DNA of 64,000 nucleotides from a virus. Shown piece by piece: positions 6,923 through 24,600 of this stretch. Under the pieces are notes generated by a model. That model ran no database searches, had not been told where the DNA came from, and worked only from the letters and a program-made list of their open reading frames with translations. The position numbers and the translations under genes are program-made. Position 1 is the first letter of the stretch. The number at the start of each line of letters is the position of its first letter. The DNA is taken from positions 54,974 to 118,973 of IMG/VR virus record IMGVR_UViG_3300027769_000875, one strand, 5' to 3'.

Positions 6923-9900
6923 TTAGTATATGTCATCAAAATAAACTCCTCCAAATTCCATAGAGCCTGGAGCTGTGTACATTGTTCCTCCAAATCTTTG
7001 TTGAATAAAGTTTTGACCGTACATCTGTTGTTGTGTTTTTGTTTGTGCATTTGCTCTATTCATGTTTTGAGAAATACAAGCCTTCTGCATATTAGATGCA
7101 TATTCTTCTTTAGCATCTTGAGGCATTGTTGTATCATTCTTTACTTGAGCGTATGCATCAGCATATGCTTTTGAACAATCCGCTTGTGTTGTTGCAGCAG
7201 TACCTGGAGAAACACTTGTATCAACTGCAGCTAATGGATCTTTTCCAGCACCTGACCATGCAAATGTAGGAGAAAGACGTTGTGCATGCCATGCATTTGG
7301 ATACATAACTCTTAAAGAATTGTCTTTTTGAACATTGCCCCAACCTGTACCAAAAAGCATTGCACCTTGTGCATCTTTCTTATTACGTTGTCCAGCAAGC
7401 TCTTCAACATATGTCGCATACTCATTGTCAAACTTACCACGTAACATTGTATTTTTGTAATCAACATCAGTATTAAGTTGCCCTATTGTTTGAAGATAAG
7501 GATTGACAATTTTAGTTGTGTTACCTTCTTCAACATCAGCAATGTCTCTTGACAATTGTTCAAACCCTTGGTTTGCACCTGCAGTAAATGCTGTTTGAGC
7601 ATCCATAGTATTCATTGCCAAATCCTGACTTTGTTTTACTAATCCTGTAGTACCAGCAATTCTGGTAATTGGATTAATTGTATCATACCCACTATAAGCA
7701 GCATTCATTTGTCTTAACACAGGTGGTGTGTTAGGAATTATTTGACGCTCATTGGTCATGTAATTTACAATATCTGGAGCAAACCATGTGTCTGGTTGCG
7801 GTGGCTGCTTGGTTGGTGGTGGTATTTTTGTTGGTGTACCACAATTCTTAGTAGCATCGTCAGCAGTTTCATACTGAGTAGCCTTGGTAACTGTTTTACC
7901 ATTTATCTCACCACTTGGTGCAACAGGTTGTTCACCTTCTTTGTAAGTAACCGTTTTAGTTTCTTTTGTACCATCAGAATACTCAACACAATAAAATGTA
8001 TTTTTTTCACCTGGTTTTGTTTCAGGTGGAGGTGGATTCAGATTATAACCAAGTCTTTCCTCTAATGTTGTGTTAGTACTGTACCTGTCAATTCCAGATA
8101 CTTGACCTTGAATATCAAATACAGTTTCATCATTTACACCAGTTTGTTTATGACTAGCTAGTCCTTGAAAATCTGGATTATTTAAAAGAGCACGTCTATA
8201 AGAAATGTATGTACCTTGTCCTAATTCATTTTTAGAAAAATCAATGTCACTAAGATTTACCTTACCATCTTTAGCTTGATTATCTACGATAATTTGTCTG
8301 GCTTCTTTGTTTACGTAATTACCTTGATAATCAGAAAGTGTTGGATCTCCTTTTGCAGCAACATTCTGACCAGCTTTAAAGTTAGGATCTGACCATGGAC
8401 CTGTTCCTGATGTTCTATCACCATAACCAAACGCTGCCATTCTTGCATTATTCTCTTCAAATTGCATCATTGTATTAATGATTTTTTCAGGATCTGCTGC
8501 AAGTGCTTTTACGTCTGCGCCATATAAATCTGAAAACTTTTTTCTTGTGTTTCTGTCTTTACCAGTGTACATTCGTAGCTCTGGATCTGCGACATCTGCT
8601 TTATACTGAGTTACAATAGCATCTCTAAATTTAGTATTTAATCGTATTTGATTATTTGCATTCTTAAAGTCAAGATATGCTTGTGTATTACCATTCCATC
8701 TTGATTCAATTTCCTTTTTCTCAGAAGCATTGAGATTGTCTGCTTTTATCCAGTCATAAGAACTACGAGTTATTTCTACTCCTGCAGGAATAGCTTCTTT
8801 AGTTGTTTCATTTCTTCTAACAATGACATTACCAGTGGCTTGATCTTCTAAAACTTGTACTACAGTATTATGATTTGGATCACCATCACTACCTTTATAA
8901 GTTATTGTATAAGCATTCATTGGTTTACCACCATTTTTGTTTGGATCAGTTACCACTTTTACCTCACTCGTAACTGGTTCTCCTCCACCACTTGTTCCAC
9001 CACCTGGATATTTAGGTAAAACAGAACCACCTCTGTCATAACGCAGTTTACCATTTTCATTAATAAGACCGCCATATCTAAAAACTTTATCTCCAATGGT
9101 GACATTAGAACCAACTGCTGGCATTGTACCACCAAGTCTCATTCCTCCAGATCCAAAAAGTTTATCAAAATCTTGATCTGTAAATCCACCTTCATATTTT
9201 GGTTTTGCCTGTGTTGGTTGCGGTTGTCTTCCTACTGGCGCTACTACATCTGTTTTTTTCTCTGTAGTATTCTCCTTTTTTATAGGCGTAACAGTTGTCT
9301 GTGGATTGATTTTATTTTCTTGCTCTAATAATTGAATTGCATCCATTGGTGCTTTTGCTGCAGGAAGTGCAACTTTTTTACCTTCTTTTGTAGAGGCTGC
9401 TGTATTTAATGAATCAACCCACGCTTGATTTGATACTTCTAATTGTGCACCATCTTGTGTTTCTTCAAACCAAACCATTTGACCATCCACATTTTTACCC
9501 ATTGTAAATATTGAGTTTGGTGCAGCTTTAAGTTTATATGGTTGAGCATAACCTTTTGCATCCTTTGCACTATTAGAAGGATTTTGAACTTGATTTATTG
9601 TTCTAACGTTGTCAATTACTTCTGGTGCATTATAGTTTAGAAAACCTTGTCTTTCATTTGTGTGTGTCAATCCTTTATTAGCTATAGGTGCAATTGTTGC
9701 AACAGTAGTACCTTTTATTTTGTCATGACCTTTTGTAATTTCATCATATATTTCAAAATAAGTTTTGAATCTAGGCCCATCAAACCATGAATCAGACCCT
9801 TCAACAACATCATCTCTATTAAGATTTATTCCAAGGATTTCTGTTTCGTTAAATAAAAAGTCAGTAGGGTATCCATAGCGAGGCATAACTTCCTCATCCT

Positions 9901-11929
9901 GAATTACACTTCCTATACCTGGTCCAGGTAGCCAACTATCCTCTGCTTCAAACTTTGAAGAGTTGACTTTCTTTTTCCAGCTTTCATGACCTGGACTTTC
10001 TAAGTATTGTTTATATCGTTTATATTTAGCTGCAAGATCAGCATATTGCTTTTTAGTTTTTACATCTACTGCTTCTCTAGCTTTTTTATCATAGTCAGTT
10101 ATAAGATCATCAGCTTTTTTAAGCATGTCATCTGTCTGATAATACTTTTGTATTTTGACTTTTTCCTTTTCGTTTAAGATTTTATAAGCTTGCTCATACA
10201 ATATGCTGTACATGTCATCAACCTTATCTTGATCTGTAAAAGGCAACCATCCTAAACTCCAATCAACATCAATATTTTTTATGTCATCAGCTGCAGCAAT
10301 CATTTGCTGAGGATCATTTGATAAAAGTGCTTTGTAAAACGTATCTCCTGCTGTAAACTGACCTGAACCAGAATTCATATATTCTTTAAGGGCATCTTTA
10401 GACCCAAATCCTGGAATAGCATCACCAAATGTTTTTTCTTTTGTGACCATATCAGCATAACTCTCAAATCCTTCTGCTTTAGCTTTCTCTTCTCTTTTTT
10501 GTTTTTCCTTTTGCTCAATACTTAAAGTTCCATACTTTTTATCTATACTGTATACAAGATCTTCTTCTGCTTGACGTTCATCTGTAAACTTACCAGTTGC
10601 AGGATCTAATCCCAAAAAGTATTTATTAAGATCTTTTAATAAAGCCTCTTCTTCACTTGTAGCTGTACCTTCAAATACTTTTTTAGTAAGTGTACCTGCT
10701 TGACTTGCTTTTTCGTAGTAACCTTCTTTTTTACGTTTTTCTTCAATAAGTCTCGCTTGTTCAGCTTTTGACTTTTCATAATTAGTAGGACCCTTGTCAA
10801 TTATTTTAAATGACTTATCAAATATCTCTTGAGCTTTTTTGTCAGCAGCAGATTGTTTTTTAACTGGAGCTGAAGTAGAACCTCGTGAAAAAACAAAGTC
10901 TTCATGATTTTTTTGAAAACTTTCATAAGGTATTCTGTAAACCTCTTTTGTATTTTTCCACATAGGAGTTACACATTCTCCAATATGACTGTTATAAACA
11001 AATCCAGGTTTACAACTAAGATTCATACTTTGCGTCCCTGGTTGAAATTTAAAAACTGAGTTTGTATAAACAGCAAATGGATCTGGATTAAAGTCTACTA
11101 CACCTGCACCTTCATAAGAAGGAAGCATAGTCCCTCCAAATTTACCTTGCATTTGATTTGCAATATCTTCAGGTGCAACTGCAGGTCCTTCAGGCATCAT
11201 ACCAGCCATAGCATCTTCATCTTCAGACATTGGAATACCTTGCTCTCCCATTGGAGGCATAGCACCTTGCTGCATACCCATACCTTGTTGAGGTTGTTGT
11301 GGAGCAAATTGTTGTGCCATTTGATTAGGATCAATTCCCATTGTGGAAAGAACCTCTTCAGCAATAGCAGGAATTCCATCAGGAAATCCTTTCATTGACT
11401 CTTGAATAAAAGCAAGTAAACCAAGTTTCTGTTTGTTCTTTTTAAGCATTTCAGCTGCAGAACGTTTTGCTAATGGATCTGAAGTTTCATCTTTTAAAAT
11501 CTCAATATAAACATTGATATCATATTTCCTAGAAATTTCAGCAGGTGTGTATCCTTGTTTTCTTGCAGGAAGATTGAATATTTTCTCAATTACTTCTGGA
11601 TCTTTAATTGTAAGGCTTTTTGTATCTGAGTAAATAAATGAGCCTTCTGGTATGTTTACAGGAACGCCTCCTTCAGTGTGTCTTTTTCCTTGGAAGTGCA
11701 TAAGCTCCATAGTGCCATCTTTATTGACATCGCCAATAACAGATTCGCCACCTTCAACTTCTATATTTGCTTGATCCCTTGGAATAGCACCCATTTTATC
11801 ATTTACTGCAACAGACTCAGGAGATACTTGCATTCCTCGTAAGTTTCTTACAAGACCGTATCCTTCTTGTTGTCCTGTGCTTTTATATGTTCCACCTTCT
11901 GGAGATGTTTTTATGCGTACCTTAAACAT
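6923..11929 (-). CDS. Putative virion cargo protein (1668 aa) with GG-delimited modules
   Basis: N-terminal ANIEVEGGESV...GKRHTEGGVP...GSFIYSD motif typical of crAss-like cargo proteins. Contains repeated KFGG/KYEGG/RYGG/RYDRGG/KYPGGG/RFGG/EFGG. Confidence 0.7.
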   Translation of the reverse strand: MFKVRIKTSPEGGTYKSTGQQEGYGLVRNLRGMQVSPESVAVNDKMGAIPRDQANIEVEGGESVIGDVNKDGTMELMHFQGKRHTEGGVPVNIPEGSFIYSDTKSLTIKDPEVIEKIFNLPARKQGYTPAEISRKYDINVYIEILKDETSDPLAKRSAAEMLKKNKQKLGLLAFIQESMKGFPDGIPAIAEEVLSTMGIDPNQMAQQFAPQQPQQGMGMQQGAMPPMGEQGIPMSEDEDAMAGMMPEGPAVAPEDIANQMQGKFGGTMLPSYEGAGVVDFNPDPFAVYTNSVFKFQPGTQSMNLSCKPGFVYNSHIGECVTPMWKNTKEVYRIPYESFQKNHEDFVFSRGSTSAPVKKQSAADKKAQEIFDKSFKIIDKGPTNYEKSKAEQARLIEEKRKKEGYYEKASQAGTLTKKVFEGTATSEEEALLKDLNKYFLGLDPATGKFTDERQAEEDLVYSIDKKYGTLSIEQKEKQKREEKAKAEGFESYADMVTKEKTFGDAIPGFGSKDALKEYMNSGSGQFTAGDTFYKALLSNDPQQMIAAADDIKNIDVDWSLGWLPFTDQDKVDDMYSILYEQAYKILNEKEKVKIQKYYQTDDMLKKADDLITDYDKKAREAVDVKTKKQYADLAAKYKRYKQYLESPGHESWKKKVNSSKFEAEDSWLPGPGIGSVIQDEEVMPRYGYPTDFLFNETEILGINLNRDDVVEGSDSWFDGPRFKTYFEIYDEITKGHDKIKGTTVATIAPIANKGLTHTNERQGFLNYNAPEVIDNVRTINQVQNPSNSAKDAKGYAQPYKLKAAPNSIFTMGKNVDGQMVWFEETQDGAQLEVSNQAWVDSLNTAASTKEGKKVALPAAKAPMDAIQLLEQENKINPQTTVTPIKKENTTEKKTDVVAPVGRQPQPTQAKPKYEGGFTDQDFDKLFGSGGMRLGGTMPAVGSNVTIGDKVFRYGGLINENGKLRYDRGGSVLPKYPGGGTSGGGEPVTSEVKVVTDPNKNGGKPMNAYTITYKGSDGDPNHNTVVQVLEDQATGNVIVRRNETTKEAIPAGVEITRSSYDWIKADNLNASEKKEIESRWNGNTQAYLDFKNANNQIRLNTKFRDAIVTQYKADVADPELRMYTGKDRNTRKKFSDLYGADVKALAADPEKIINTMMQFEENNARMAAFGYGDRTSGTGPWSDPNFKAGQNVAAKGDPTLSDYQGNYVNKEARQIIVDNQAKDGKVNLSDIDFSKNELGQGTYISYRRALLNNPDFQGLASHKQTGVNDETVFDIQGQVSGIDRYSTNTTLEERLGYNLNPPPPETKPGEKNTFYCVEYSDGTKETKTVTYKEGEQPVAPSGEINGKTVTKATQYETADDATKNCGTPTKIPPPTKQPPQPDTWFAPDIVNYMTNERQIIPNTPPVLRQMNAAYSGYDTINPITRIAGTTGLVKQSQDLAMNTMDAQTAFTAGANQGFEQLSRDIADVEEGNTTKIVNPYLQTIGQLNTDVDYKNTMLRGKFDNEYATYVEELAGQRNKKDAQGAMLFGTGWGNVQKDNSLRVMYPNAWHAQRLSPTFAWSGAGKDPLAAVDTSVSPGTAATTQADCSKAYADAYAQVKNDTTMPQDAKEEYASNMQKACISQNMNRANAQTKTQQQMYGQNFIQQRFGGTMYTAPGSMEFGGVYFDDIY

Positions 11930-11967
11930 ATTTTAAAATTTTAAAAAGGGATATGTCTTACCACATC

Positions 11968-11988
11968 CCTCATTAGAAGTTACAAAAT
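11968..11988 (-). promoter_or_regulatory. Candidate late promoter motif copy 1
   Basis: Minus strand TTTTG-TAACTTC-TAATGAGG in the gap upstream of the 1668-aa gene; shared with three other intergenic gaps. Confidence 0.5.
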
Positions 11989-12031
11989 TATTCTGATTTA
12001 TCCTATCCTCCATAATACAAATGTAGGAATT

Positions 12032-14773
12032 CTAATCTAAAAATTCAACCTCGCCACCCATCTGTATAATGGCTTGTAGCTCTTGTGGAGAAATCATATA
12101 TGTTCCACCTCTTCTATAATTTTTGGTTCCTCCAAATTTAGAAAGTGTAGTACCCCAGTCTTGAGTATGACCAAGGTCTGCAACATATTGATTGGCTCCT
12201 GGTCCAGCATTCAAGTTCCAAGTACCAAAACTTCCTTGAGTATTGATTGCATTATTGGCCATCATAGTATTACCAGCTTGTTTCTGACGTTTCTTTAAAT
12301 CCTTTACTGCTCTTCTTTCTCCCCATTGAGCTGTAGCATCCTCCATCATAGTAAGACCTTGATATGTATTACTTGCTGCTTTAAATCCTAATGGATCTCC
12401 TTGTTGAGTAGTATACTCTTTTGTATCAGTCATGTTAGCATTTGGGTTTGCACTCAATGCATTATTAGTGTTGTCAGTAGTATTAATCATTCCATTAGTA
12501 GAAGGTGTGCCAGCAACTGATGGATTATTGAAATTTGACACATAAGTATTGTAAGCATCCCAATCGTTTCTATTTAATGGGAATGGTCTACCAGTTTTAC
12601 TTGCCCAGTCTTGTTGACTATATGGAGAAGTTTCTGTATCAACTGCACCACCTGGAGCATACATGGGCATTGTAATTCTCAATTTACGTCTATTATCTAC
12701 AAATGGATTCCACTCACCACCATCCCTTTTATTCTCCTCATCATTAATTGGTCCTGATAAATTAGTCATTATTGATGGTTGTGCCACAGGTTGTGCAGTT
12801 ACAGGTTGCGGAGACGCAGTACCACTACCAGCATTTGGATTATAATTAGGAGCAGTTGGATCTGTTGATTGTAAGTCACCTGAAGCAGAACCTTCTGGTT
12901 GTTTGTTGACATTCAATTGACTATTCATATAGTTAACTTTATCTTGACCTGTAACAGTAGTTGGTGGAGCTGCTTCTGGTGCAGTAGATGTAGTAGGTTG
13001 CACATATCCTTGATTTTGTGTAGGAGCAGATGCAGGTTGATTCTTATTTAATGCTCTTTTTTCATCACGCTTGCTATTGTAAAAGAATACATTTCCTTTA
13101 TCATCATAAACACGAGATTCATCACCAGCCATTCCTTTAGCAATACCTAATCCTGCACCTCCAGCAACTGCAGCTGCACCCATTAAGAATTTAAGTCCAG
13201 GACCAAATCCACCAGTAATAGGGGCAAATCTTGGATCTGCAAATGAATTACTTACTGCCATTGCTCTTGTTGCCCAGTTTGAATCAATATTTGCAATCTT
13301 ATTTTTATCAGACATTACAATATATGGACTATTTGTCAAGCGTGGATCTGTTGGCATTGCGCCAGATGGATTATTAGCTGCTCCAGTTTTCCATTGGTCG
13401 TATGATAACTGAGGTGTTGCACCAGTATTACTAGCATTAGTTGCAGAGTATTGGTTTACATAATTTTGGTAAGCAGCAGGACTTGTTTTCATTTCAGTAT
13501 ACATTTGATCCTGAGCAGGATTCTGAGAAATAAATTCCTCATAAGATTGCATTGGTGCTCTATTCATGCTAGGATCAACTTTGCCACTGTTATAAAAGTC
13601 TACGACTTGTGTTTGATATTCTTGTTGTGCTTGATCTGAACCAAATATTTTTAAACAGTCACCATCAGGACCTTTGTAGTATCCAATTGGACATCCATCT
13701 TCAGTACCTCCAGCACCATATTGTTTCATTCCACCATTGACAAATTTGTTAAGTCCACCATAACGTGCATATCCTTGAGTTGCAGTTGGTTGTGTAACAA
13801 CTGGTTGTGGGTTAGTTGCATTTTGAAATGATTGGAAAAAGTTATTTTGTGGATTTGTCATTTGATCATTGCGAATACCAGAATACAAATTACCAATAGC
13901 TTGTTGTGATGCTTCTTTTTGTGCAACGCGATTAGCATCATAGGTTGATAACATGTTACCATAAAAATTAGCTTGTGCACTATTTCTGGCATCAGCAGCT
14001 TGTGCAGAAGCAACAACATTTTGATTGTACTGATCCATTCCTGCTTTTGCACCTTGCGGTCCAGTAAGCTCATTGCCACCAAATATTTTCATTCCACCAG
14101 CACCTTGTGATGCAGTATTTGCTGTAACAGCAGTAGGCATACATGTTGCAGTCATTTCATTCCATTCATATCCATCAGGACAAGAATTACCACCAGCACC
14201 ATATCTACGCAACTTTTTCATAGAGCCACCATACTTTCCTTGCATTGCCATTTCTTGATCTGCCATTTGCTGTTGATCAGTACCTTGAGCCATTGCCATT
14301 TGAGATTGATCCATACCAGTTTGTGGTCCAGCTTGTTGCCCCATTCCCATTGGGTCTTGGTTATTAAACATTCCCATTTGCTGTTGCAATGCCATCTGCT
14401 GTTCTTGCTGCAACTGTTGCTCTCGTGCTTTTTCATTTACATAATCACCTTCTTGAGCACGTTTCATGTACTCTTGTTTGGCAACCATTATCAATTCTTC
14501 AGCTTGGTCACGTTTTACACCAGAATCAATTAATGTCTTTTTAAGTATACGTTCACTTGTGCCTTTATCTAATTGTTGTAGCAAAAAAGTCATAAGCTGT
14601 TTAGCACTTGCATCCAATGCACTAGGTGGACGCATTGGTTGTTTTTGCATTTGACCCATGTCTGCAACAGCTGCTTGATCTTGTTGCATTGTATCTCCAC
14701 CATCAGCGTAACGCACTTTGCCACCACATTTGTAGCATTGACCTCCAGTCATATATTCTAACATGTTATTCAT
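12032..14773 (-). CDS. Putative virion cargo protein (913 aa), Gln/Met-rich with many GG motifs
   Basis: More than ten GG motifs, mostly Y/F-x(0-2)-GG. Two CPxGY...C mini-domains and a hydrophobic segment LKFLMGAAAVAGGAGLGIAKGM. Confidence 0.65.
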   Translation of the reverse strand: MNNMLEYMTGGQCYKCGGKVRYADGGDTMQQDQAAVADMGQMQKQPMRPPSALDASAKQLMTFLLQQLDKGTSERILKKTLIDSGVKRDQAEELIMVAKQEYMKRAQEGDYVNEKAREQQLQQEQQMALQQQMGMFNNQDPMGMGQQAGPQTGMDQSQMAMAQGTDQQQMADQEMAMQGKYGGSMKKLRRYGAGGNSCPDGYEWNEMTATCMPTAVTANTASQGAGGMKIFGGNELTGPQGAKAGMDQYNQNVVASAQAADARNSAQANFYGNMLSTYDANRVAQKEASQQAIGNLYSGIRNDQMTNPQNNFFQSFQNATNPQPVVTQPTATQGYARYGGLNKFVNGGMKQYGAGGTEDGCPIGYYKGPDGDCLKIFGSDQAQQEYQTQVVDFYNSGKVDPSMNRAPMQSYEEFISQNPAQDQMYTEMKTSPAAYQNYVNQYSATNASNTGATPQLSYDQWKTGAANNPSGAMPTDPRLTNSPYIVMSDKNKIANIDSNWATRAMAVSNSFADPRFAPITGGFGPGLKFLMGAAAVAGGAGLGIAKGMAGDESRVYDDKGNVFFYNSKRDEKRALNKNQPASAPTQNQGYVQPTTSTAPEAAPPTTVTGQDKVNYMNSQLNVNKQPEGSASGDLQSTDPTAPNYNPNAGSGTASPQPVTAQPVAQPSIMTNLSGPINDEENKRDGGEWNPFVDNRRKLRITMPMYAPGGAVDTETSPYSQQDWASKTGRPFPLNRNDWDAYNTYVSNFNNPSVAGTPSTNGMINTTDNTNNALSANPNANMTDTKEYTTQQGDPLGFKAASNTYQGLTMMEDATAQWGERRAVKDLKKRQKQAGNTMMANNAINTQGSFGTWNLNAGPGANQYVADLGHTQDWGTTLSKFGGTKNYRRGGTYMISPQELQAIIQMGGEVEFLD

Positions 14774-17700
14774 TTTCTGATAAATTTACTTAAAGTTTTT
14801 ATATTGCCACCATATTTATTTTTTGGTGTATCTGAATTCATTCCTTGTACAACACCATATCCAGCTGCTGGAATAAGTATTGGTAAATACTTAACAATTC
14901 CTGCCTTTAGTTCATTAGGTGCATCTTCTTTAAAATGAGGAGCTACCTCTGGATCTTTCATTAACCATTCAGCATAATAATCTTGATTTTCAGGAGCTTT
15001 AATATTTGCTATAGCCTCTTCCATAGATATATTATATGTTTTCATTAACTCTTTTGCAAGTTTGTATCTTGCAATCATTAAGTCAGAATGTAATTCATTT
15101 GGTGCAGCTAACCATGTTTGATCTGTCATACTTGTTACCATTTTTGCATCAGTAGTTGGTACAGTTGGTTCAACCATAACTTCTTTCATCATAGTTAACA
15201 ATTCACTTTTAGGATCTTGTCTTGTAACAAAATAACCATATGATGGATCATTTTGTTGAAGTCGTGAAATCCAGTTTCCATAAAACTTTTGAAAATTGTG
15301 ACCTAGTTCATGTGTATTAACTTCTGCTATACGATCAGGAGCTTTCATATACTGATCAATAAAGTGTATTACTTTAGGATCTGATGCTGTTTCTAAAGTT
15401 TCAGTTTCTGGTATTACAACTCCCATAAATTGATTTGCAAGCGTATTTGGTTTTGAACCAAGTGTTATTGTTGAATTTTCCATTGCAACTCCACCAATAT
15501 TGTCATAGTTATTCCCCACATACATTTTTTCAAATGGTGATAATGATTGGAAAGATGGTTCATGTTTTGCAGGATGTACAAGTTTTATTTTATCTTCAAG
15601 ACCTGTAAATTTATCAGCTATTCCACTTGCATATGGTTCATCAATTTTAGTTTTAATTTGATCAAATCTAGCAGGGTCATCACGCATTGTATCCTCATAA
15701 ATTTTGAGAATTTTATCTTTAAACTTAGGATCAATATTTGCCTCTATAGTTTTCATTTGTTCTCCTATTGTGCTTTGAAGTTGTTTTGCTTCTTTTTCCA
15801 TATTAAGCACAGACTCACTTGTTTGAAGAAGTCTTTGCATAATGCCATTATTAGGATTTTGTTTAGCCAAAATTTGAACAAGTTCACTTGTATGATCTCC
15901 TATATCAGCTATTGTTTTATCTGGATTTAATTTTAAAAATTCTTTTATTGCATCATCTTGATCTTGTGCATTAATAGAACGCAATTGTCTATTGAGTGAT
16001 TCTACTGCGTTTTTATATAAACCACCACGAGGGTCATTTGTACCTTTAATTTCATTCAATCTTTTAATTGATGGTGCAAGGATTTTATCTGCCTTTTTAA
16101 AAACATCTGAATCTTTAAATGCCCATTTTAATGCAAAGTCTGTAGATTCATCTAATGCTTGTTGTTGACCTGCTCTTGACATTGGAAAATCATCTGCAGA
16201 TTCATATCCTTTTGATGGCCATTGTTCTCTATATACACTAGTAATTTTTTCAGGAGACTCATTTAATAACTTTTGTTTTTCAGCTTCATTTGCAATACGT
16301 GTATATTTCATTCCTGACATTTTATCAGGACCAATTGTTAAATCTGAAGATTCTCCATATGTAATTGGTTTGTCACTCAGTTTAGATGGTAATGGTGTTG
16401 TGTCTACTTCAATTGAATTTAATGCTTTATTATTTGGAACTTTTACAACTAGTACTTTAGGATTCTTTCCTAACTGAAAGGCAGCATCCATTCTAGTATT
16501 ACCTGAAAATACTCTTCTTGTACCATCAGAAAATTCTAATACTATTGGCATATCCATATCTTTACCAGAACTCAAGCCATCATAAATAGCATTTATTGTA
16601 TTCTCATTTCTAAATTCTGGCCAAGACTTGTAACCTTTACTTAAATCTATCATTGCATCTTTACTACCAGTTCTACTTCTATAGCCAATAGATGCATCCA
16701 GTTCAGGTGTAATTTCTTCAACTGTACCATTTTTAACAGCACTCATAAATTCATCTTCACTGTTAAAAAATGTATTACCTTTTAACTCATGTTCAACATG
16801 ATATTCTTGTTTAAGTTGTGTTTCAGATGGTTTTTGCCAATTTGGTTGTGATTGTGCATTAGGTTTTTTTAGAGTTCTAATATTTCTTGGTTTTACTACA
16901 TAATCAAAACCTCCATGTTTATTAGGAAACTTTCCTACAACCTTCATATCAAAACCAGAACCAAATAATTCTAGCTCATCAACTGGACCTTTTGTATTTG
17001 CAAATCCTGGTCTTGTTCTATCTAAGATTTTTTGAATGGCTTCTTCTTTATTAGCAGGATCAGCAAATAATCTTAAGTTTTCATTGTAATCATTTACTTC
17101 ATTTGTAAAAATTTCTGCAGACTCTTCTGCAGTATAAACTCCATCTGCAGGATTACCTGACTTAGGTTTTCCAGTAAGAAAGTTTGGATCTTTAGGTGGT
17201 TTTGGACCTAAACCTGAGACATCAGAATATCTAGCATTTTGTTCTGCATATAGTGCCTCTGCTTGTGCCATAACTTCTTCAGAACTCAATCGTTGTGTAC
17301 CATAATAAGAATCACCTATCAAACGACTACCTTTGCTGTTGTCAATTACCGTTAGTTCTTCGTCAGGAATGTTAGTATAATATCCTTGCTCTAATGGTTC
17401 ATAACGTTGTTTTGCAAAGTTACCTTCTACCTTTTTAAGATTTTTACCACTAAGTACAATTCTATCAGTATTGCCATAATAGTATCTATCCTTATTACTT
17501 ACTCCAGTTGAAAATGCAGATGGTCTATCTTGAATTGAAATAGTTTTTATATCATCAGATGCACCAGTAAATGCTTGAAAGTCTCTTTCAGGATTTGAAA
17601 ATGCTCTTGTTACAACAGCATCTTCTGGAAATTTTAAATTTGCCTTTCCAATTAATTCATTAAATGCATCTTGTTTTGGACCTGGTTTTACAAATGGATA

Positions 17701-19572
17701 ATTAGAAAATTGATATTCTTTTAACATTGCCTTTTCAGCAGGTGTAAAGTCATCTGATTGTAAAATTTTATTAAACATTGTTTCAGAAACAGCACCATCT
17801 AAATTGGCTGCTGGATTTTTCCAAGCAAAAGGTAAAACGCTTTCGCCTTGAGCAACTGTATTGTATCCTTGCTTAATTTTAGCACCAGCCATTGTTATAT
17901 CATCAAGTACACTTGGTATACCTAATCTAGCTTCTGCTACAAATGGAAGTGTATTAGCAATACCCATAAATAACTCTTCATTACCTGTTTTCCAATCACC
18001 GCTACTATATGCGTCATATGCTTTTGGAAGGTTATGACCCAATCCATGATATGCGCCATATCCTGCTAAAGCTTGACCTGTAGTCATTCCACCCCAACTT
18101 GTTCCTGCTAATCCTGGTATATACTTTAACGGTTGAGTTTTTATCAATGCGTTTAATCCTTTCCAACCATACTTAGCACCTTTAACCATTGGTATTACTG
18201 TTGCAAGATTAAATACAGCGTCTCCATAATCACCCTCTCTTAATGCCAAACCTGCTCCTGCTCCTGCACGACCAATATTTACAACGTTGAGCATATTATT
18301 AAAGGTAGAATTAGATTTACCAGAAAACTTATCATAATAATAGTTATCTTCTGCAGAAAATCTTTCAGGATCAATTGACCATTCACCTTGTCCAACCATT
18401 GGCCCTTCACCTCTAAATAAAGCATTATTAGTAACCATTAATGGGTCAGCAATAAACGCTTGTGTTGCATTTAAACCTTTTTCCCACCATGCCAAATTAT
18501 CATATATTCTTTGTTCACTTTTTTTCCAAGCTGCTTCTTTTCTACTTTCAAGTGTGCTAAAGAAATCAGGATTTGTACGCATCTCTCTAAGTACAATATC
18601 TTGCATTGAAAGAGGACCACCTTCTCTATTTCCATTTTCTTTTGACATGTATTCTTTATACAACTCTGGAAAATGCTGAGCAAAGTCTCCACGAGCTACA
18701 ATCTGACGAGCTGCATCATTTTGAGCTTTAGTTATTGATAGTGTTTGCTCAAGTATATTTGGAATATTTCCTAACGAATTATTAGTTATAATGGAGTTAT
18801 CAACTCTTGTATTATCAGAACCAACAGTTCTTAAGTGTTGTTGTCTTTGTTCTTCAAGTCTTTCTAATTCTTTTTGCTTATCCTCTTTTTCTTTTTGTTT
18901 ATATAAGTCTTGTTGAATTTTTACATTACTTGCAATAGGACTATTTGTAGCTTTTATCTTTTGAGTTGTTGTAGCAAATGGACTGTTCAGTGTTTGGTTA
19001 CGTTGAATTTCATAATTAGATACTGTAGCTTTTGGTTTGTCATTACCCCAGTTTGAATCATCTGCTTGCATTCTTCCTCGCTGCAAATAGTCTTCAGGAT
19101 GCATATAATTATCCATATCATAGGCACTAGAACCATTTCCAGACATAATCCATGTCTTTCCATTCCATTTGTACCAGTTACCTTGTTGATCTTTTTTATA
19201 CTGAGTATTTTGATATCTATAGTATTTATCACCAGGATTACCACCACCTACAAATTTTGTAAGGCCACCTTCAGCATAAGATTTTATAGGATTTTCCCTA
19301 TGCCATTTTCTAGTAGCAGCAACTCCTTGTGCTACAGTTTTAGCATCAGCTTTATCTGTAAGATTGATTGTGTCCCATTTACCTTTATCTTCTTGAGGAT
19401 GATTAACTATAACATCACCATTAGCGTTTTTATAAACTCTATGATATTCACCATCTACTGTCAAATACTCACCACCATCAGGATATTTTTTGAGATCAGT
19501 TTTCTTCCTTCTTGAATTTGAAAATTCAGAAAGTTTCTCAAACATCCTTTGTTCACTGTACTTTGCCATCAA
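14770..19572 (-). CDS. Polyvalent virion protein (1600 aa): ART-like, ParB/Srx-like and zincin (HExxH) domains
   Basis: ART-like signature FTPAEKAMLKEY...VVTRAF...SAFSTG...DELEL. ParB/Srx-like signature MPIVLEFSDGTRRVFSGNTRMDAA. Zincin signature THELGH...PNELHS. GG motifs at both ends. Likely start is the ATG at 19569. Confidence 0.65.
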   Translation of the reverse strand: MMAKYSEQRMFEKLSEFSNSRRKKTDLKKYPDGGEYLTVDGEYHRVYKNANGDVIVNHPQEDKGKWDTINLTDKADAKTVAQGVAATRKWHRENPIKSYAEGGLTKFVGGGNPGDKYYRYQNTQYKKDQQGNWYKWNGKTWIMSGNGSSAYDMDNYMHPEDYLQRGRMQADDSNWGNDKPKATVSNYEIQRNQTLNSPFATTTQKIKATNSPIASNVKIQQDLYKQKEKEDKQKELERLEEQRQQHLRTVGSDNTRVDNSIITNNSLGNIPNILEQTLSITKAQNDAARQIVARGDFAQHFPELYKEYMSKENGNREGGPLSMQDIVLREMRTNPDFFSTLESRKEAAWKKSEQRIYDNLAWWEKGLNATQAFIADPLMVTNNALFRGEGPMVGQGEWSIDPERFSAEDNYYYDKFSGKSNSTFNNMLNVVNIGRAGAGAGLALREGDYGDAVFNLATVIPMVKGAKYGWKGLNALIKTQPLKYIPGLAGTSWGGMTTGQALAGYGAYHGLGHNLPKAYDAYSSGDWKTGNEELFMGIANTLPFVAEARLGIPSVLDDITMAGAKIKQGYNTVAQGESVLPFAWKNPAANLDGAVSETMFNKILQSDDFTPAEKAMLKEYQFSNYPFVKPGPKQDAFNELIGKANLKFPEDAVVTRAFSNPERDFQAFTGASDDIKTISIQDRPSAFSTGVSNKDRYYYGNTDRIVLSGKNLKKVEGNFAKQRYEPLEQGYYTNIPDEELTVIDNSKGSRLIGDSYYGTQRLSSEEVMAQAEALYAEQNARYSDVSGLGPKPPKDPNFLTGKPKSGNPADGVYTAEESAEIFTNEVNDYNENLRLFADPANKEEAIQKILDRTRPGFANTKGPVDELELFGSGFDMKVVGKFPNKHGGFDYVVKPRNIRTLKKPNAQSQPNWQKPSETQLKQEYHVEHELKGNTFFNSEDEFMSAVKNGTVEEITPELDASIGYRSRTGSKDAMIDLSKGYKSWPEFRNENTINAIYDGLSSGKDMDMPIVLEFSDGTRRVFSGNTRMDAAFQLGKNPKVLVVKVPNNKALNSIEVDTTPLPSKLSDKPITYGESSDLTIGPDKMSGMKYTRIANEAEKQKLLNESPEKITSVYREQWPSKGYESADDFPMSRAGQQQALDESTDFALKWAFKDSDVFKKADKILAPSIKRLNEIKGTNDPRGGLYKNAVESLNRQLRSINAQDQDDAIKEFLKLNPDKTIADIGDHTSELVQILAKQNPNNGIMQRLLQTSESVLNMEKEAKQLQSTIGEQMKTIEANIDPKFKDKILKIYEDTMRDDPARFDQIKTKIDEPYASGIADKFTGLEDKIKLVHPAKHEPSFQSLSPFEKMYVGNNYDNIGGVAMENSTITLGSKPNTLANQFMGVVIPETETLETASDPKVIHFIDQYMKAPDRIAEVNTHELGHNFQKFYGNWISRLQQNDPSYGYFVTRQDPKSELLTMMKEVMVEPTVPTTDAKMVTSMTDQTWLAAPNELHSDLMIARYKLAKELMKTYNISMEEAIANIKAPENQDYYAEWLMKDPEVAPHFKEDAPNELKAGIVKYLPILIPAAGYGVVQGMNSDTPKNKYGGNIKTLSKFIRK

Positions 19573-19578
19573 TTAAAG

Positions 19579-21669
19579 TTAAAAAAACTTACGCAATTTT
19601 CCTATATTTCCTCCATATTTGGCCATCTGAATATCAGAACCAAACACATCATTTTTACCTTTGCCAGAATCAGCAAGAAGATTAAATAGATTTGCCAAAG
19701 ACTTGTTATCTTTTTTCAATCTATAAATTCTATAAATATCATCAATAAAGTTAGGACTGTTTTTATCTAAATAACCTTTTTGTTCTGCTTCTTTTAACAT
19801 TTCATCAACTTTTTCTTCAGTGATCACATCTGTTGGTTGCAAGTTAAATAATTGTCTTGCTACATTTATATTTGAATGTATGTTATCTTCAGATGGTGTT
19901 GTAGAATAGTCATAATTTTGCTCTAATATTTCTTCTTGTTTAGAGTCTTTTGGATCTAATTTGCCTTCTGAAATAGCTCTACTACGAAAGTCTTCCCATG
20001 GCATTAAGGTTTCACCTAGTAGATTTGAATAAAACTTTTGATATTTTGTATCTTCAAAAAATGGTTCATTCATCCCTGTAGTCCATTCGTGTATCATTGT
20101 TGATTTTTGTTTGATTGGATTTGATAACTCATCTTTTCTAACACGAATGCTTCCTAATGCGCCATCTTCACCGTACACATATTCACCAACAGCATTTGGA
20201 TCTGCAAGAGGACCTGTATACTCAATTGGAGTTAGAGGTTGACCTTCTTCAATTTCACCATATTGTTGTTGCATTTGTGGAATAACTGTATTCATTAATT
20301 TCACATGTAATTCTGCATCTTTTGGATTTTCTGGATTACCAATTGCTTCAAGATACGCTGGATCAGTTAAAATTTTAGAACGATTGTCATACCAGTTCTT
20401 CATGTACTCTGTTGTCTCTAATGATTCTGGTGTAACTGTTCCCTCTATGGGAACACATACTTGGTATGTGTCATCCCACTCATACCCTTCCTTACAATCA
20501 GAAGGACCCATCATGCCACCCATTGCTTTTCTACGTAACTTGCGTTCTTGCTCTATCATCTCACGTGTAGGTTTTCTACCTGAACCTTTGTTTGCTCTTA
20601 TGTTGTCCCATAGTCCTCTTTGAGAATAAGAACCATCAGCACGTTTGATCATCTCTCCACCTTTTCTGTATTCTTGATTAAATGCTGGTGAAACTTGTTT
20701 ATAGTGCTCTGCAAAGTATTGTGCCTCAGCTGGATTATTAAATCTCATTGCTTCATTAGATTCAGAACCATAGTCACCAAGCATTAATTGGCCATTTTGA
20801 TTTTGTATCTGTGGAACAGCATAATCATCCATACTTGCCATATAATGAGTACCTGTCATACCATTTCCAAAATCATATGGATTATCTGGAGCAACTATCA
20901 TTCTTTTTGCAGCAGGATTACCAAACTCATTTGCATATGCAAGTTTTGATTTCATCATGCCTGTCACATAACCTTGTAAATGTTCAGGAACTTGAATTTC
21001 ATACTCTCCTGGTTCATTGTGATAATCTACAACAGCTTGACCTTCAGGTGTAGTTTCTCTCCAGTTTTTATACTGGTTAAGCGCATTTTGCAACATGTTA
21101 TAATCTTCCAATGTCCAACTTGCAGGATTACCTACTTGTGATTCAATTGATTTAATGTACTCTTCCCATTGTTCTGGAGAAGAAGGAATGGTTCCACCAT
21201 ACTCCATATTGTTAAGAATCTTATTCTGCACGTAATTTGGCAAAGCATTAAACCCAGGATTATTAATTGTACCACCTTCTTCTTTGGCAAAGTTTCTAGC
21301 AAAGTTTGCTTTCTTTACCATTGCTGATGAATAGTTATCTTTGTTTGCCAATATATGTGCAGCTGCTTCTTGTATGCCCATACCCATGCGTGTCGCTTGA
21401 GCTTTGAATGTTCCTTTTTTAGCAGGATCTAGATGTATACCACCACGCTTTGCTTGTTGATATGCTTGCTCCATGCTCATCTCTTCTTGAGGAGACATTT
21501 GTTGTTGCATACCAGGAACAAACTGACTAAGAGCTTGAGCTTGATTTTGCATAAGTGATTGTTTCAATTGATCTTTCAATTGTTTTTCTTGCTGAACTTC
21601 TGCTTGTCTTTTACCAAAGTTAGCTAATACATCAGCTATTGTCCATTTGTTAGGATTGTTTGAACTCAT
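19579..21669 (-). CDS. Modular virion protein (696 aa) with GG-delimited cassettes and a degenerate zincin-like C-terminal domain
   Basis: KRGG/EEGG/EYGG/YRKGG/AMGG/KYGG delimit short modules. STMIHEWTTG resembles HExxH lacking the second His. Confidence 0.6.
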   Translation of the reverse strand: MSSNNPNKWTIADVLANFGKRQAEVQQEKQLKDQLKQSLMQNQAQALSQFVPGMQQQMSPQEEMSMEQAYQQAKRGGIHLDPAKKGTFKAQATRMGMGIQEAAAHILANKDNYSSAMVKKANFARNFAKEEGGTINNPGFNALPNYVQNKILNNMEYGGTIPSSPEQWEEYIKSIESQVGNPASWTLEDYNMLQNALNQYKNWRETTPEGQAVVDYHNEPGEYEIQVPEHLQGYVTGMMKSKLAYANEFGNPAAKRMIVAPDNPYDFGNGMTGTHYMASMDDYAVPQIQNQNGQLMLGDYGSESNEAMRFNNPAEAQYFAEHYKQVSPAFNQEYRKGGEMIKRADGSYSQRGLWDNIRANKGSGRKPTREMIEQERKLRRKAMGGMMGPSDCKEGYEWDDTYQVCVPIEGTVTPESLETTEYMKNWYDNRSKILTDPAYLEAIGNPENPKDAELHVKLMNTVIPQMQQQYGEIEEGQPLTPIEYTGPLADPNAVGEYVYGEDGALGSIRVRKDELSNPIKQKSTMIHEWTTGMNEPFFEDTKYQKFYSNLLGETLMPWEDFRSRAISEGKLDPKDSKQEEILEQNYDYSTTPSEDNIHSNINVARQLFNLQPTDVITEEKVDEMLKEAEQKGYLDKNSPNFIDDIYRIYRLKKDNKSLANLFNLLADSGKGKNDVFGSDIQMAKYGGNIGKLRKFF

Positions 21670-24600
21670 TATCTTGGGCTATTTAAATTTTTAACGTTTG
21701 TAAGTTTAAGAACCATCTTATTATCTCCACTTATATTCTTTCTCAAAATTACTCTATTACCATAATGTCTGAACTTTTTGTGTTCAAGTGGTGATTTATT
21801 GTAATCAACATAAGCTGGATTAATAAACTTTTTGACTCCTGCACATTCAGTATTCCACATTGGAAGTTTGGTTCCTGAGAACTCACCTCTATCATTTGTA
21901 ATATCCCAGAATGTATTGAATCTATACTTGTTTTCTTCTTTGGAATAAAGTATTTCAATATAGTCTGGCCCAATTACTGGATTTGCTAAGATGTCTAATG
22001 GATTACTTTTTTGCTTAATGCGCATTCTAAGAATCCCTGATATCTGCTCTGAATTGTAAAGGATTGCTCTATCAAAGTTTTCATCTAACACATGGAAATA
22101 ATCTTTACCATCATTGTAGAATTTATACACATCAAGATAGTATTCAAAACTTCTGAGAGTTGTAATTTGATTTGGTGTAACAATTGGATACTCAATTTCC
22201 CATGGATAGTTGGTATCATAGTAGTTACAGAAGCTATCCCAACGATCATTGTGTTTCCAAATGCTATCACCATTGATGGTATAGAAATTTTGATATGATG
22301 GCATCATTAATGTTGGAATCCAATCATGGAAACTAATCCACATTTTTGATTTTGGATCATAACTTACTGTCCAATTACATGGTTCAAAACATGTTGGATC
22401 ATCATATGCACATGGACATTGTTGCACAATTGCATTCAGTGTAACACTTACCTCACATAGTTTTTGATCTCCTTCAGCATTTTCTACAAGAATTGAATAT
22501 GTTGTATTTCCAGCTGGAGTGACTGTAAAACTTCCATTTAATGGCAATGTTCCAACACCATTATTCATCGTTACAGAAACAGCATTTTGTGTTGACCATG
22601 TAAGTGTTACAGATTGACCGTAATCAATATTAACTGCAGATATTCCAAGCTGACAATCAGGACAAGGACTACCAGGAATAATTGTAGTAATCTCACAAAG
22701 TGGAACATCACATCCGCTTTCTACCATTGTACTTCCAGTAGGACATACATAATGACCTTGGCTTTCAGGATCTGGAATTTCTTCTCCAATAAAATCTCTT
22801 GTAGAAAATATGATAAAAGGTTCTAAATCTGCTGGAGTTGGTCCACAATCTAAAGGAGATGTTGTGTATGGCGTAAGAAGTCCGCTTGATTGAAACTGTG
22901 TAAGTGTCATGTCATATATCTCACCAGCAAACGCTGCAATTGAATTATGATTACGTCCACACAATCTTATTGTTCTTGTACCTGCTGTTAGTGTAACAGG
23001 GAATACGTGCCAAGATGTAAATGGAACAGTGACACTGCTATCCTCTTGTCCAGCAGAATTACGTGCTGAAAGATATACCCATAAATTTCCATCAACATAT
23101 ATTTTTACTTCATTGTCACCAGCAATACCAATAAGATATTGTTTTGTTGTTGGTATTGTTGTACAAAAAGAAAAACATACGTCAGTGTCAAAAGGTTGTT
23201 GACCACCATTTGGCCATACTCCTGCAATATTCAATCTACCACGAGTTTGACCACCACATGCTCCACTTGTATTCCACAATTCATTTTGAACATTTACTAA
23301 TGGATTCACAGGTGCACCAACTCCATTCATGCCTCTAACCTTGTAGGTTGAGTTATTACCAACACCTTTTAATGGTTTTATTTCTGAGGTAATATCTGGA
23401 TATAATCTTATTCCAGACTTATTATATGCAGCATTATTTGTTGCCTCATCAATTTCAAGAGTTGCTCCTGTAAACTCTGCTGGCACAGTAGTTTCAATAA
23501 CACATTCACCATCTATAATAACAGCTTCTGGAGGACAACCACCTTCGCATGGTTCAATAACAGGTGGTTCATAAGGAATGTCACCAGGTGTAATTTCACC
23601 ACAGATATAATATGGAACACCATTTGGATCATCAAATAGCAAATCATTTCTCAAAGGTCTATAATCTTTTTTTGAGAAGTACACTAACTCATATGTTGAG
23701 TCATAAATTGCTTGAACGCCAATACCTGCAACAGGATTATCATACAAAGGATAGTTTGGATATACCTCCAACATTTTAGAAGGTAAATTTTCTGCAAACC
23801 AGAATTTTAAACCAGTACGCGATATTTCTTCTATTCCTGAACCATTTGATGTAAACACTTTACCTATGTCTTGTGAGACAAAGAATAACCCATATGGTGT
23901 ATTTATCGCAGCTCTTGATGATATAGAAGAGCCATATGCAAGAGCATCATCAGCGTTAACAAGACTCTGAAAGTTTTGTTGAAATAATCCACTGTCACCA
24001 ATTGTTACTTTTGTTCCACCTTGAGTTTGAAGTTGATCAACGCCTACAAATGTTGTAGGTTCTGCATCTTCAAATAAGATAAGAGCACCAGTTGCATTCA
24101 ATGGTTTGATAATGTTTACTTTACCATAGAAGTCTTTATAGTTAAGGGGTAGATAGTTTCTCCAGTTATCTCTTCTGAGTCCTGATCGTTGTTGTAATGA
24201 ATAGACACTTCTTCGTGGGTAGTATTCAAAACATGATGAATACAATTGTGGGTCATAGTCACGTGGTAATATTTGTCCCCAGTTTGCAAGGTTGTTAAAT
24301 AGTTTGGAACTACTAAGTGATAAGTCATATTTATAGTATGTTGGTTTAGAAATAATATCTGACCTAAACATTGTGCTTATGTCATTAAATGAAAAGCCAT
24401 ACACATCATAAAACTTTTGGAAATCCTCAAGTCCATAATCTCTATATGCCATGTTTAATTCTGACTCTGTAAAGTAATCACGTACACCATTATAGAATAA
24501 ATAAAACCAGTTATTTTTTCTAACTAATCTAAGTGTTGCACCATTATTACCTGGTGCATCTAATCTATAGTTATCAGATGGCGTAGTTGCATCTAAGTCA

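Follow-up and report, generated by a model that had tools for sequence, protein, structure and literature searches.

What purpose does a short motif ending in Gly-Gly serve when it recurs along several large, consecutive proteins of a virus? This question is raised by positions 6,923 to 21,669 of a 64,000-nucleotide stretch of DNA, here called the window, from the IMG/VR virus record IMGVR_UViG_3300027769_000875. The source record is a virus genome of 118,973 bp with a completeness of 94% according to CheckV, and the window comprises its last 64 kb. The region consists of exactly four minus-strand open reading frames (ORFs), coding for proteins of 1668, 913, 1600, and 696 amino acids (aa), the sizes given in the initial annotation of this DNA; all 16 example strings of the motif quoted there were found in these proteins, as were the two near-identical C-termini, KYGGNIGKLRKFF and KYGGNIKTLSKFIRK. 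The motif had been interpreted as a dedicated signal, either a protease cleavage site releasing many small effectors or a loading or ejection tag which also serves as a joint for module shuffling. The explanation that we prefer, and to which we give about an even chance, is that of a seam which stays uncut and which at chain ends would act as a docking tag of virion cargo.

The strict form of the motif was defined as [KR][YF]x(0-2)GG and the loose form as [YF]x0-2GG. Both were counted in the four proteins, which total 4,877 aa, and in the remaining 115 ORFs, 32,654 aa in all, of a set that we called greedily with a minimum length of 60 aa and that is not an annotation. The four proteins contain 49 GG dipeptides, 16 strict motifs, and 28 loose motifs, compared with 100, 2, and 27, respectively, in the other ORFs; for the loose form, this corresponds to 5.74 versus 0.83 per 1000 aa. 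When the residues of each protein were permuted 500 times, the means were 0.9 strict (maximum 4) and 7.4 loose motifs (maximum 17), and the observed values were reached by none of the shuffles. The enrichment over the rest of the proteome, which the initial annotation had proposed together with a rarity in capsid, portal, and tail genes, is therefore confirmed, and elsewhere in the genome the motif is about as frequent as shuffling predicts, or rarer: with gaps of 0, 1, and 2 residues between the aromatic residue and GG, the other ORFs have 6, 9, and 12 motifs versus 10.0, 10.7, and 11.0 expected. The enrichment is carried mainly by the 913-aa and 1668-aa proteins with six strict motifs each (0/500 shuffles), while the 1600-aa protein has three (reached by 3/500) and the 696-aa protein one (67/500). 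As for the flanking 1948-aa protein, the loose motif occurs three times if overlaps are allowed and twice otherwise.

The motif is conserved. In four related IMG/VR contigs (L001, L002, L003, and L090), the counterpart of the 913-aa protein shows 41-86% identity and the motifs are present in the same proteins at the same positions; a search anchored on the neighbouring 892-aa protein yielded four loci, and the 892-aa homologues of L001, L002, L003, and L090 contain no strict motif. A set of 80 loci around the capsid gene stops short of the cargo block and was left aside. An alignment of 42 sequences homologous to the 913-aa protein has 36 invariant columns, of which 14 are motif glycines, and the mean conservation is 0.85 for GG residues, 0.53 for other glycines, and 0.48 for the remaining residues. 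Residues 1-26 of this protein, which hold three motif copies, are identical in the window, L001, L002, and L003 and differ at some positions in L090. The codons used for invariant motif residues by the five phages differ in 8 of 20 columns within residues 1-26 and in 11 of 16 columns in a second set, and GG is encoded by seven different hexamers across the 28 motif sites. Since codons vary synonymously under the motif, selection acts on the protein, and the notion of a dedicated, selected protein signal, specific to genes at the cargo position, is borne out by enrichment, conservation, and codon variation alike.

The shape of the motif became apparent when aromatic residues were counted at gaps of 0 to 5 residues before GG. 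In the four proteins, these numbers are 11, 3, 16, 2, 3, and 2, with about 2.6 expected at each gap; in 116 representative relatives of the 913-aa protein, the last 60 aa of which had been removed, they are 163, 35, 269, 101, 147, and 87 (about 55 expected), and in 119 relatives of the 696-aa protein 178, 50, 319, 98, 167, and 116 (about 52 expected). In the rest of the genome, the register is flat. Aromatic residues are thus favoured at positions -1, -3, and -5 from GG, which is the periodicity of a β-strand, and because of this i, i+2, i+4 pattern we read the motif as an extended strand with one aromatic face that is closed by a Gly-Gly turn. In this phage, 73% of the aromatic residues at gap 0 are preceded by Lys or Arg. 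Double units, i.e. [YF]GG followed after 2-10 residues by [YF]x0-2GG, occur 58 times within the 116 relatives, compared with 1.7 times in shuffled sequences.

A second line of evidence comes from the chain ends. When a profile of the 913-aa family was run against 1.84 billion representative proteins, 210 clusters (defined at 50% identity) were obtained at E≤1e-3 and 101 at 1e-10, and nearly all of the 210 match only the last 130-150 or so profile positions, at the C-termini of proteins of 41-2,242 aa. The pattern ..[KR][YF]GG..[YF].xGG[ET]Y.[LV][ST]..E[IL]..[IL][IL]..GG[ED][IV]E[FY][LI]D closes 187 of 195 stored proteins (the 913-aa family plus the search matches), and in the more distant contigs L091-L094 both the gene order and this ending are kept. 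For the C-terminal module of about 75 aa, Pfam has no family, and tblastn with the last 174 aa of the 913-aa protein and two family representatives detected it in none of 50,697 GenBank phage records; the entire 913-aa protein had no real match there either, the one hit among these searches having E=6. No cultured relative carries the module. By these searches, the module is new and widespread. The 696-aa and 1600-aa families end in a shorter tag composed of [KR][YFH]GG, about five residues, and L/M..F[FI]. Of 119 listed relatives of the 696-aa protein, 107 have a GG among their 35 C-terminal residues, compared with 31% of other 35-aa windows, and of the 22 listed relatives of the 1600-aa protein, 16 end in GGN[IV]K.LSKFI[RK]K, three in the long tag, and three otherwise. 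The last 100 or so residues of the two families align weakly with each other (hhalign 44%, E 2.4e-4). The variants of the tag comprise a short FF type and long EFLD and YTFEKI types. Judged from these termini, nearly every polypeptide at the cargo positions ends in a GG tag. In two contigs, the homologue of the 1600-aa protein is split into two genes (L002, 3502-10004; L090, 3988-10004); the upstream piece ends in a tag of its own, RFGG...LLNKFFRQ, and the split point matches the place at which the window's protein has its internal double unit SYAEGGLTKFVGGG. As the new end carries a tag where the intact protein has a double unit, the internal seam and the terminal tag are the same element.

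The third line of evidence concerns the junctions between modules. The five close phages show 23 distinct internal boundaries of homology blocks, 10 of which lie at most five residues from a GG, with 2.7 expected (P about 1e-4). When the 696-aa protein was compared with 119 relatives, a GG was near 137 of the 174 internal ends of high-scoring segment pairs (HSPs) and near 77 of the 166 internal starts (background 10.3%); by unique position these are 23/44 ends and 20/66 starts, and on the subject side 136 of 165 ends are near the subject's own GG. The ends cluster at GG132, GG158, GG337, and GG384. In total, 1,575 database proteins match the 696-aa protein, mainly in its first 135-160 or so residues and mostly over 9-30% of the query, and some of its relatives contain SET domains (28.9 and 25.1 bits, Pfam cut-off 22.4), a Pkinase match below the cut-off, and partial CBM_14 matches. 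With the downstream parts varying and the HSPs ending at GG, the family is best described as a conserved carrier joined to varied payloads at GG, and since the seam is the only sequence common to otherwise unrelated modules, module exchange would take place there. In the 1600-aa protein, a search of GenBank phages matched only residues 906-1035 (window 16468-16857), which show 45-48% identity to hypothetical proteins encoded by Rhodothermus phage RM378 and by two Alishewanella phages; this block contains ...SGNTRMDAAFQLG, which looks ParB-like, and Pfam finds nothing there. The ddrB-ParB model (PF18763) had no match, but its control was silent in every genome, so that this result is uninformative. 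Of the initial proposal that the motif marks boundaries between unrelated modules, the first half stands insofar as homology blocks often end at GG, with the restriction that some copies sit within one conserved C-terminal domain, whereas several of the modules turned out to be paralogous. Coincidence of junctions and GG in homologues is strong in the 696-aa family, moderate in the 1600-aa family, and not seen with the distant relatives of the 913-aa protein.

What kind of proteins bear this element is suggested by their position. From its sequence, the genome is that of a distant crAss-like (Crassvirales-type) phage, with portal (PHROG 6547, E 1e-88), TerL (PHROG 6681, E 3e-68), HK97-type major capsid protein (PHROG 11589, E 2e-33), and gene order in agreement; in tblastn searches, the portal is 22-27% identical to crassvirus portals and 31% identical to that of Leptolyngbya phage Lbo-JY46, the closest named one. 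The portal gene lies at 42636-45365 and that for the capsid protein at 39633-41261. On the minus strand, the capsid and tail genes are followed by the genes for the 1948-aa protein, the 696-, 1600-, 913-, 1668-, and 892-aa proteins, and then those of 1932, 4004, and 2031 aa. The last three match the RNA-polymerase-associated cargo proteins gp47, gp49, and gp50 of crAss001: the 4004-aa protein gp50 (E 5e-10) and gp47 (E 2e-9), the 2031-aa protein gp47 (E 8e-5), and the 1932-aa protein gp47 (E 0.003). In crAss001, the order is gp44 (muzzle), gp45 (C1), gp46 (C2), gp47, so that the position between the muzzle gene and the C2/RNA-polymerase cargo is common to both phages, the difference being that three extra genes precede the C1-like one here. 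Because of this synteny with the C1/C2 position, the four large proteins are assigned to the virion cargo and are probably packed into the particle and injected.

The kinship with C1 extends to the motif. In gp45, 21 GG and nine loose motifs are present in 842 aa, a number reached by 1/500 shuffles; among eight C1 proteins from named crassviruses, the motif count is reached by at most 5/500 shuffles in four and by 32-48/500 in the other four. The motif glycines G20, G209/210, G373/374, G392, G427/428, G447, and G562/563 of gp45 are invariant in six C1 proteins. The module GG76-GG132 of the 696-aa protein aligns with residues 373-431 of gp45, which are likewise bounded by GG (hhalign 85%, E 6e-6), and residues 53-180 of the 1668-aa protein align with residues 447-543 of gp45, its portal-bound domain (hhalign 55%, E 1.2e-4), so that a portal-binding region may be common to the two. 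Other searches gave nothing of this kind: hmmsearch of the 696-aa module alignment (A7) against PDB sequences returned only spurious matches and not gp45, phmmer of the 1668-aa protein against PDB sequences gave a spurious match only, neither the 1668-aa nor the 913-aa protein had a significant BLASTP match to gp45, Pfam returned nothing for the 1668-aa protein, whether scanned whole or over residues 1-200, and crAss_CARG1 (PF25725) had no match in the whole genome at E≤10. Like C1, the proteins of the window have an N-terminus that is basic and ends in GG, as well as a hydrophobic stretch rich in glycine. The two systems differ in that this phage distributes the elements among four proteins (696-1668 aa), where crAss001 has a single one of 842 aa, and in that the conserved C-terminal modules of this phage group are absent from crAss001. 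Taken together, the 1668-aa protein is the probable counterpart of C1. In the accessible text of the structural study (Bayfield et al. 2023, PMC10172136; PDB 7QOG, 7QOI, 7QOJ, 7QOL, 8CKB), gp45 is treated as one chain spanning the portal, with residues 214-245 ordered in the tail barrel and 425-552 on the portal; that text does not mention the motif, and the strings "cleav" and "proteoly" do not occur in it. In the sequence, the ordered segments are flanked by YGG208, FGG426, and YGG561, and three GG sites lie within residues 425-552, which are modelled as one domain; these sites are therefore uncut in the virion.

From these observations, we infer for the motif an uncut seam with a docking function, on the assumption that the proteins are present in the virion, that the tag docks, and that cleavage does not occur. 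An extended strand with an aromatic residue, here usually preceded by Lys or Arg, would end in a Gly-Gly turn and cap the small modules of ejection proteins organized like beads on a string. The copies at chain ends, either in the short form [KR]YGG-x5-L-x-KF or in the long form ..YGG..Y.xGG.Y.LS..EI..IL..GGE[IV]EFLD, would be docking tags which bring the polypeptide into the procapsid or keep the order of ejection. Internal copies would be the same element retained at module fusions and would provide flexibility, perhaps also multivalent docking, for the passage through the narrow channel of portal and tail. The second interpretation of the initial annotation, a loading or ejection tag which is at the same time a shuffling joint, is in this respect supported by terminal tags, GG breakpoints, and swapped payloads, within the limits of sequence analysis. 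Several points speak against the uncut seam with a docking function. The placement of the four proteins in the virion derives from synteny only. The loose motif is not individually significant in the 696-aa protein (three copies, reached by 48/500 shuffles) and in the 1600-aa protein (four copies, 78/500), and the preference for Lys/Arg is weak in the wider families (16-29% versus about 11% background). The HSP counts are not independent, the subjects being related; in the 1600-aa family, breakpoints near GG are only modestly enriched (6/23 and 6/29 versus 6.5%), and the comparison of the 913-aa protein with 165 distant relatives gave no enrichment (ends 7/43, starts 37/154, versus 19.4%). Finally, the HExxH motif conserved in the 1600-aa family lends cleavage some probability.

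Among the alternatives, the one that fares best, though we regard it as considerably less probable, is a purely intramolecular fold element, in which the motif caps β-rich mini-domains and serves as a hinge, without any docking or tag role. It would account for the β-like aromatic register, for the GG sites within the ordered gp45 domain, and for the fact that GG precedes recurrent small modules (the Cys hairpin, GGIH..KGTF, and a GGEY..LS-helix). For the full-length 913-aa protein, AlphaFold2 (AF2) with 42 homologues gave a poor model with a mean predicted local distance difference test (pLDDT) value of 44, and the motif regions 1-57, 132-198, 296-367, 648-709, and 830-890 were all below 50. 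When the last 174 aa were modelled with 88 sequences, confidence was high for a long helix at residues 794-834 and for a terminal element at residues 889-913 (pLDDT 81-89), the latter running from GG-TY.. via a helix to MGG-EVEFLD; in this model, the terminal GG sites look like turns within a mini-fold, for which Foldseek found no match in the PDB. Most seams thus remain below a pLDDT of 50 even with 42-88 homologues, and since such conserved islands in sequence of low confidence are typical of motifs that become ordered on binding, this is less in line with a mere fold element. Nor does that explanation account for the strict placement at the extreme C-terminus and for the new tag after gene fission.

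In a rival explanation that we consider improbable, the GG seams would be cut while the proteins are still in the head or once they have been injected, the HExxH domain of the 1600-aa protein being one conceivable phage protease, and the modules would be set free as separate effectors. The seams are located between modules, where predicted disorder would make them accessible, payloads resembling enzymes, SET among them, are found in relatives, and the zincin-type signature HE[LIFV]GH is kept in all five close members of the 1600-aa family (window, L001, L002, L003, L090). Moreover, in the accessible text of Iyer et al. (2017; PMC5512222), zincin-like MPTase domains are proposed to process polyvalent proteins, and processing of phage P1 DdrB is cited. 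Owing to the conserved HExxH and to this proposal, cleavage is still to be counted as a rival, at the low probability given above. The search for a suitable peptidase was negative: Peptidase_S78 and CLP_protease (controls worked) and Peptidase_C39 (PF03412; control positive in 7 of 14 genomes) had no match in the genome, MPTase-PolyVal (PF18818) had none at E≤0.1 (control positive in Bacteroides thetaiotaomicron), and Pfam found nothing in the HExxH region of the 1600-aa protein. For Peptidase_S77, the control was silent in every genome, and the missing match is therefore uninformative. In the distant loci L091, L093, and L094, HExxH was not found in the 18-20 kb examined, and the 696-aa protein retains its tag despite a degenerate HEWTT. 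The sites themselves fit cleavage poorly. They stand in pairs or triplets 7-12 aa apart and 6-13 residues from the termini, so that cutting would yield only very short fragments; with the aromatic residue in either of two registers, -1 or -3, the fit to one protease subsite is poor; the confidently predicted mini-fold encloses the last GG sites, and in gp45 of crAss001 the portal-bound stretch 425-552 with three GG sites is one modelled chain. The virion gel bands of crAss001 include 85, 100, 150, 270, and >300 kDa, in the accessible text of the respective report (PMC6235969). Overall, these results do not support the first interpretation of the initial annotation, that of protease sites freeing many small effectors.

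A further proposal, which goes beyond the uncut seam and is in our view similarly improbable, is a general cargo code of environmental crAss-like phages, made up of seams and terminal tags, in which any payload between the conserved N-terminal carrier and a C-terminal GG tag would be loaded into the capsid and injected; half-units at chain ends, [KR]YGG..L.KF at the C-terminus and [KR][YF]xxGG near the N-terminus, would pair in trans and thereby let the cargo proteins exit as an ordered chain. In an alternative version, a zincin within the cargo would cut the seams after injection, and the proteins would then be true injected polyproteins.

A recombination signal at the DNA level, i.e. a stretch selected as a crossover site for cassettes, would explain why homology blocks break at the motif, but it is largely refuted by the synonymous codon variation at invariant residues and the variety of GG hexamers; what is conserved is an amino-acid pattern with an aromatic register, and we regard this explanation as very improbable. 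That the motif merely reflects chance or composition, as might be supposed for glycine-rich low-complexity linkers in four proteins which are somewhat rich in glycine (7.2-10.3%) and have Met/Gln-rich tracts, is hardly credible and is refuted by composition-preserving shuffles that never reach the counts and by the positional conservation of the sites in homologues.

The features of the locus are listed in Table 1.

Table 1 Features of the four-gene region and its surroundings; positions refer to the window unless stated otherwise
Feature	Position	Strand	Remarks
1948-aa muzzle-position virion protein	21669..27515	-	upstream of the block, flanking control; PHROG 37948, 15100 "virion structural protein"
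696-aa cargo-position protein	19579..21669	-	ORF; N-terminal carrier, variable middle, degenerate zincin-like motif, C-terminal GG tag
696 aa, widespread N-terminal carrier, residues 1-160	21190-21669
696 aa, GG-bounded module (RGG-IHLDP...KGTF...ANFARNFAKEE-GG), residues 75-133	21271..21447	-	shared with gp45 373-431
696 aa, two-Cys mini-module, residues 392-405	20440-20500
696 aa, degenerate zincin-type motif HEWTT, residues 527-531	20077-20091
696 aa, C-terminal tag AKYGGNIGKLRKFF	19582..19623	-
1600-aa mosaic cargo-position protein	14770..19572	-	ORF
1600 aa, zincin-type motif HELGH	15298-15312
1600 aa, C-terminal tag NKYGGNIKTLSKFIRK	14773..14820	-
913-aa protein	12032..14773	-	ORF; richest in motifs (12 loose, 6 strict)
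913 aa, residues 1-26	14696..14773	-	three motif copies (YMTGG, YKCGG, YADGG) 7-8 residues apart
913 aa, residues 179-213	14135..14239	-	double-GG unit (KYGG..LRRYGAGG), then two-Cys hairpin
913 aa, residues 336-375	13649-13768	-	second copy of double-GG unit and hairpin
913 aa, two-Cys mini-modules, residues 198-213 and 361-375	14135-14200, 13649-13700
913 aa, conserved C-terminal module, residues 839-913	12035..12259	-	ends ..KFGG..YRRGGTY..S..EL..II.MGGEVEFLD
1668-aa protein	6923..11929	-	ORF; probable C1 (gp45) counterpart
1668 aa, two-Cys mini-module, residues ~305-318	about 10982-11020
892-aa protein	4235..6913	-	crAss001 C2 (gp46) position, flanking control; 0 strict, 1 loose motif
HEAFH in RNA-polymerase-like 4004-aa ORF	genome 41383-53397		upstream of window

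Neither Pfam nor PHROGs matched any of the four proteins, and six sub-regions tried separately against Pfam were likewise without match. The 1600-aa protein is composed of a leader ending in KKYPDGG (residues 1-34), the double unit already mentioned (98-111), the block shared with unrelated phages, HELGH at 1421-1425, and the C-terminal tag. Most of the 913-aa protein is predicted as disorder or helix, and its residues 521-548 form a hydrophobic stretch resembling a glycine zipper. In the 1668-aa protein, the N-terminal signature MFKVRIKTSPEGG and the candidate portal-binding region at 53-180 are followed by a GG cluster at 911-983 (nucleotides 8981-9199) and the C-terminus QRFGGTMYTAPGSMEFGGVYFDDIY (nucleotides 6926-7000).

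Several smaller elements recur within the block. A mini-module with two cysteines, C-[PK]-x-G-[YF]-x-[WY]-x5-7-C-[VM]-P, usually stands directly after GG; AF2 predicts its copies in the 913-aa protein as β-hairpins (strands 202-205/210-213 and 365-367/373-375), and copies in relatives partially match Pfam CBM_14, the chitin-binding peritrophin-A domain. Low-complexity tracts rich in Met and Gln precede a ..QGK[YF]GG[ST]M seam in the 913-aa (residues ~120-178), 1668-aa (~205-262), and 696-aa proteins (~38-70), and a weak paralogy exists between residues 131-268 of the 1668-aa and 54-185 of the 913-aa protein (BLASTP E 0.003). Also recurrent is a signature of the form basic-V-[KR]-[IV]-K-x-x-P with GG after it, which is found at the N-terminus of the C1-position proteins, here as MFKVRIKTSPEGG, and within the 913-aa protein as KLRITMPMYAPGG; it also ends upstream proteins in L091 and L094 (1951-aa and 1334-aa ORFs) and starts the gp45 proteins of the crAss001 type.

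Outside the block, a switch of strand and GC skew at about position 51000 separates the minus-strand structural and cargo genes from plus-strand genes, and the GC content rises to 0.42 at 52-56 kb. The window contains no tRNA genes, whereas Lbo-JY46, of which 33 kb were viewed, has a large tRNA cluster beside its portal. Two pairs of paralogues were observed, the 164-aa and 166-aa ORFs at 52156-52650 and 53429-53929 on the plus strand (51% identity over 161 aa) and the adjacent 233-aa and 530-aa ORFs at 32267-32968 and 32979-34571 on the minus strand, the N-termini of which are 48% identical over 82 aa.

Among known systems, the polyvalent proteins of phages come close to the proteins described here. 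According to the accessible text of Iyer et al. (2017; PMC5512222), they are likewise large mosaics encoded beside virion genes and presumably delivered along with the DNA, and they share rapid module shuffling, a zincin-type HExxH (one here), and enzyme domains such as SET (here in relatives); the processing idea of the initial annotation agrees with the proposal made there. A seam or tag motif is not described in the main text of that paper, in which the word "glycine" does not occur. The differences are that the MPTase-PolyVal model has no match and that the four proteins had no Pfam match at all; Atlas searches yielded no more than weak leads, one of them to LPD23 (score 0.91, 134 shared features).

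The cargo-loading peptides of encapsulins are short terminal tags, rich in Gly and hydrophobic residues, which dock cargo inside a shell of HK97 fold. The short tag GG-x-I-x-x-L-x-K-F may be compared with them as a functional analogy only, not by sequence relationship or shown binding; the comparison refers to the terminal tag on 187/195, 107/119, and 19/22 proteins and to the split gene that gains its own tag. Double-glycine leaders, which are cut by C39 peptidases, are N-terminal and single. They also consist of a short conserved peptide ending in Gly-Gly, whereas the copies described here are multiple, internal, and C-terminal, and C39 has no match. The C-terminus of the 913-aa protein was considered as a leader of this type and rejected, as it is two residues off register with respect to the leader consensus and a C39 peptidase match is missing. 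Capsid-targeting signals of the T4 type stand at the N-terminus, where a dedicated prohead protease cleaves them off at sites containing Glu. In the present proteins, the tags are C-terminal or internal and end in Gly-Gly, and S78 and ClpP have no match. What the T4 and giant-phage systems for targeting and processing internal head proteins (PMC9026906; PMC10052503) have in common with them is a short peptide signal on proteins that are packed into the head and ejected.

In a literature search for a glycine motif in Crassvirales cargo, no paper was found. For the loading of about 5 MDa of protein cargo by crassviruses and its ordered ejection, the accessible text of Bayfield et al. (2023; PMC10172136) offers a hypothetical model only. 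A seam and tag common to all cargo-position proteins would provide a concrete and mutable handle on cargo loading and ejection. Crassviruses are among the most abundant phages known. The seam occurs in C1 of crAss001, DAC15, and DAC17 and in hundreds of uncultured relatives, and the cultured crAss001 and DAC systems allow tag deletion, tag swapping, and reporter fusion; by sequence, the finding thus reaches well beyond this genome. The C-terminal module with its 210 clusters represents an addition to the domain libraries, from which it is absent. If the seams were cut after all, they would constitute the first sequence-defined processing code for phage polyvalent proteins. For the evolution of the cargo proteins, the motif would offer an explanation in that modules are swapped at the seams.

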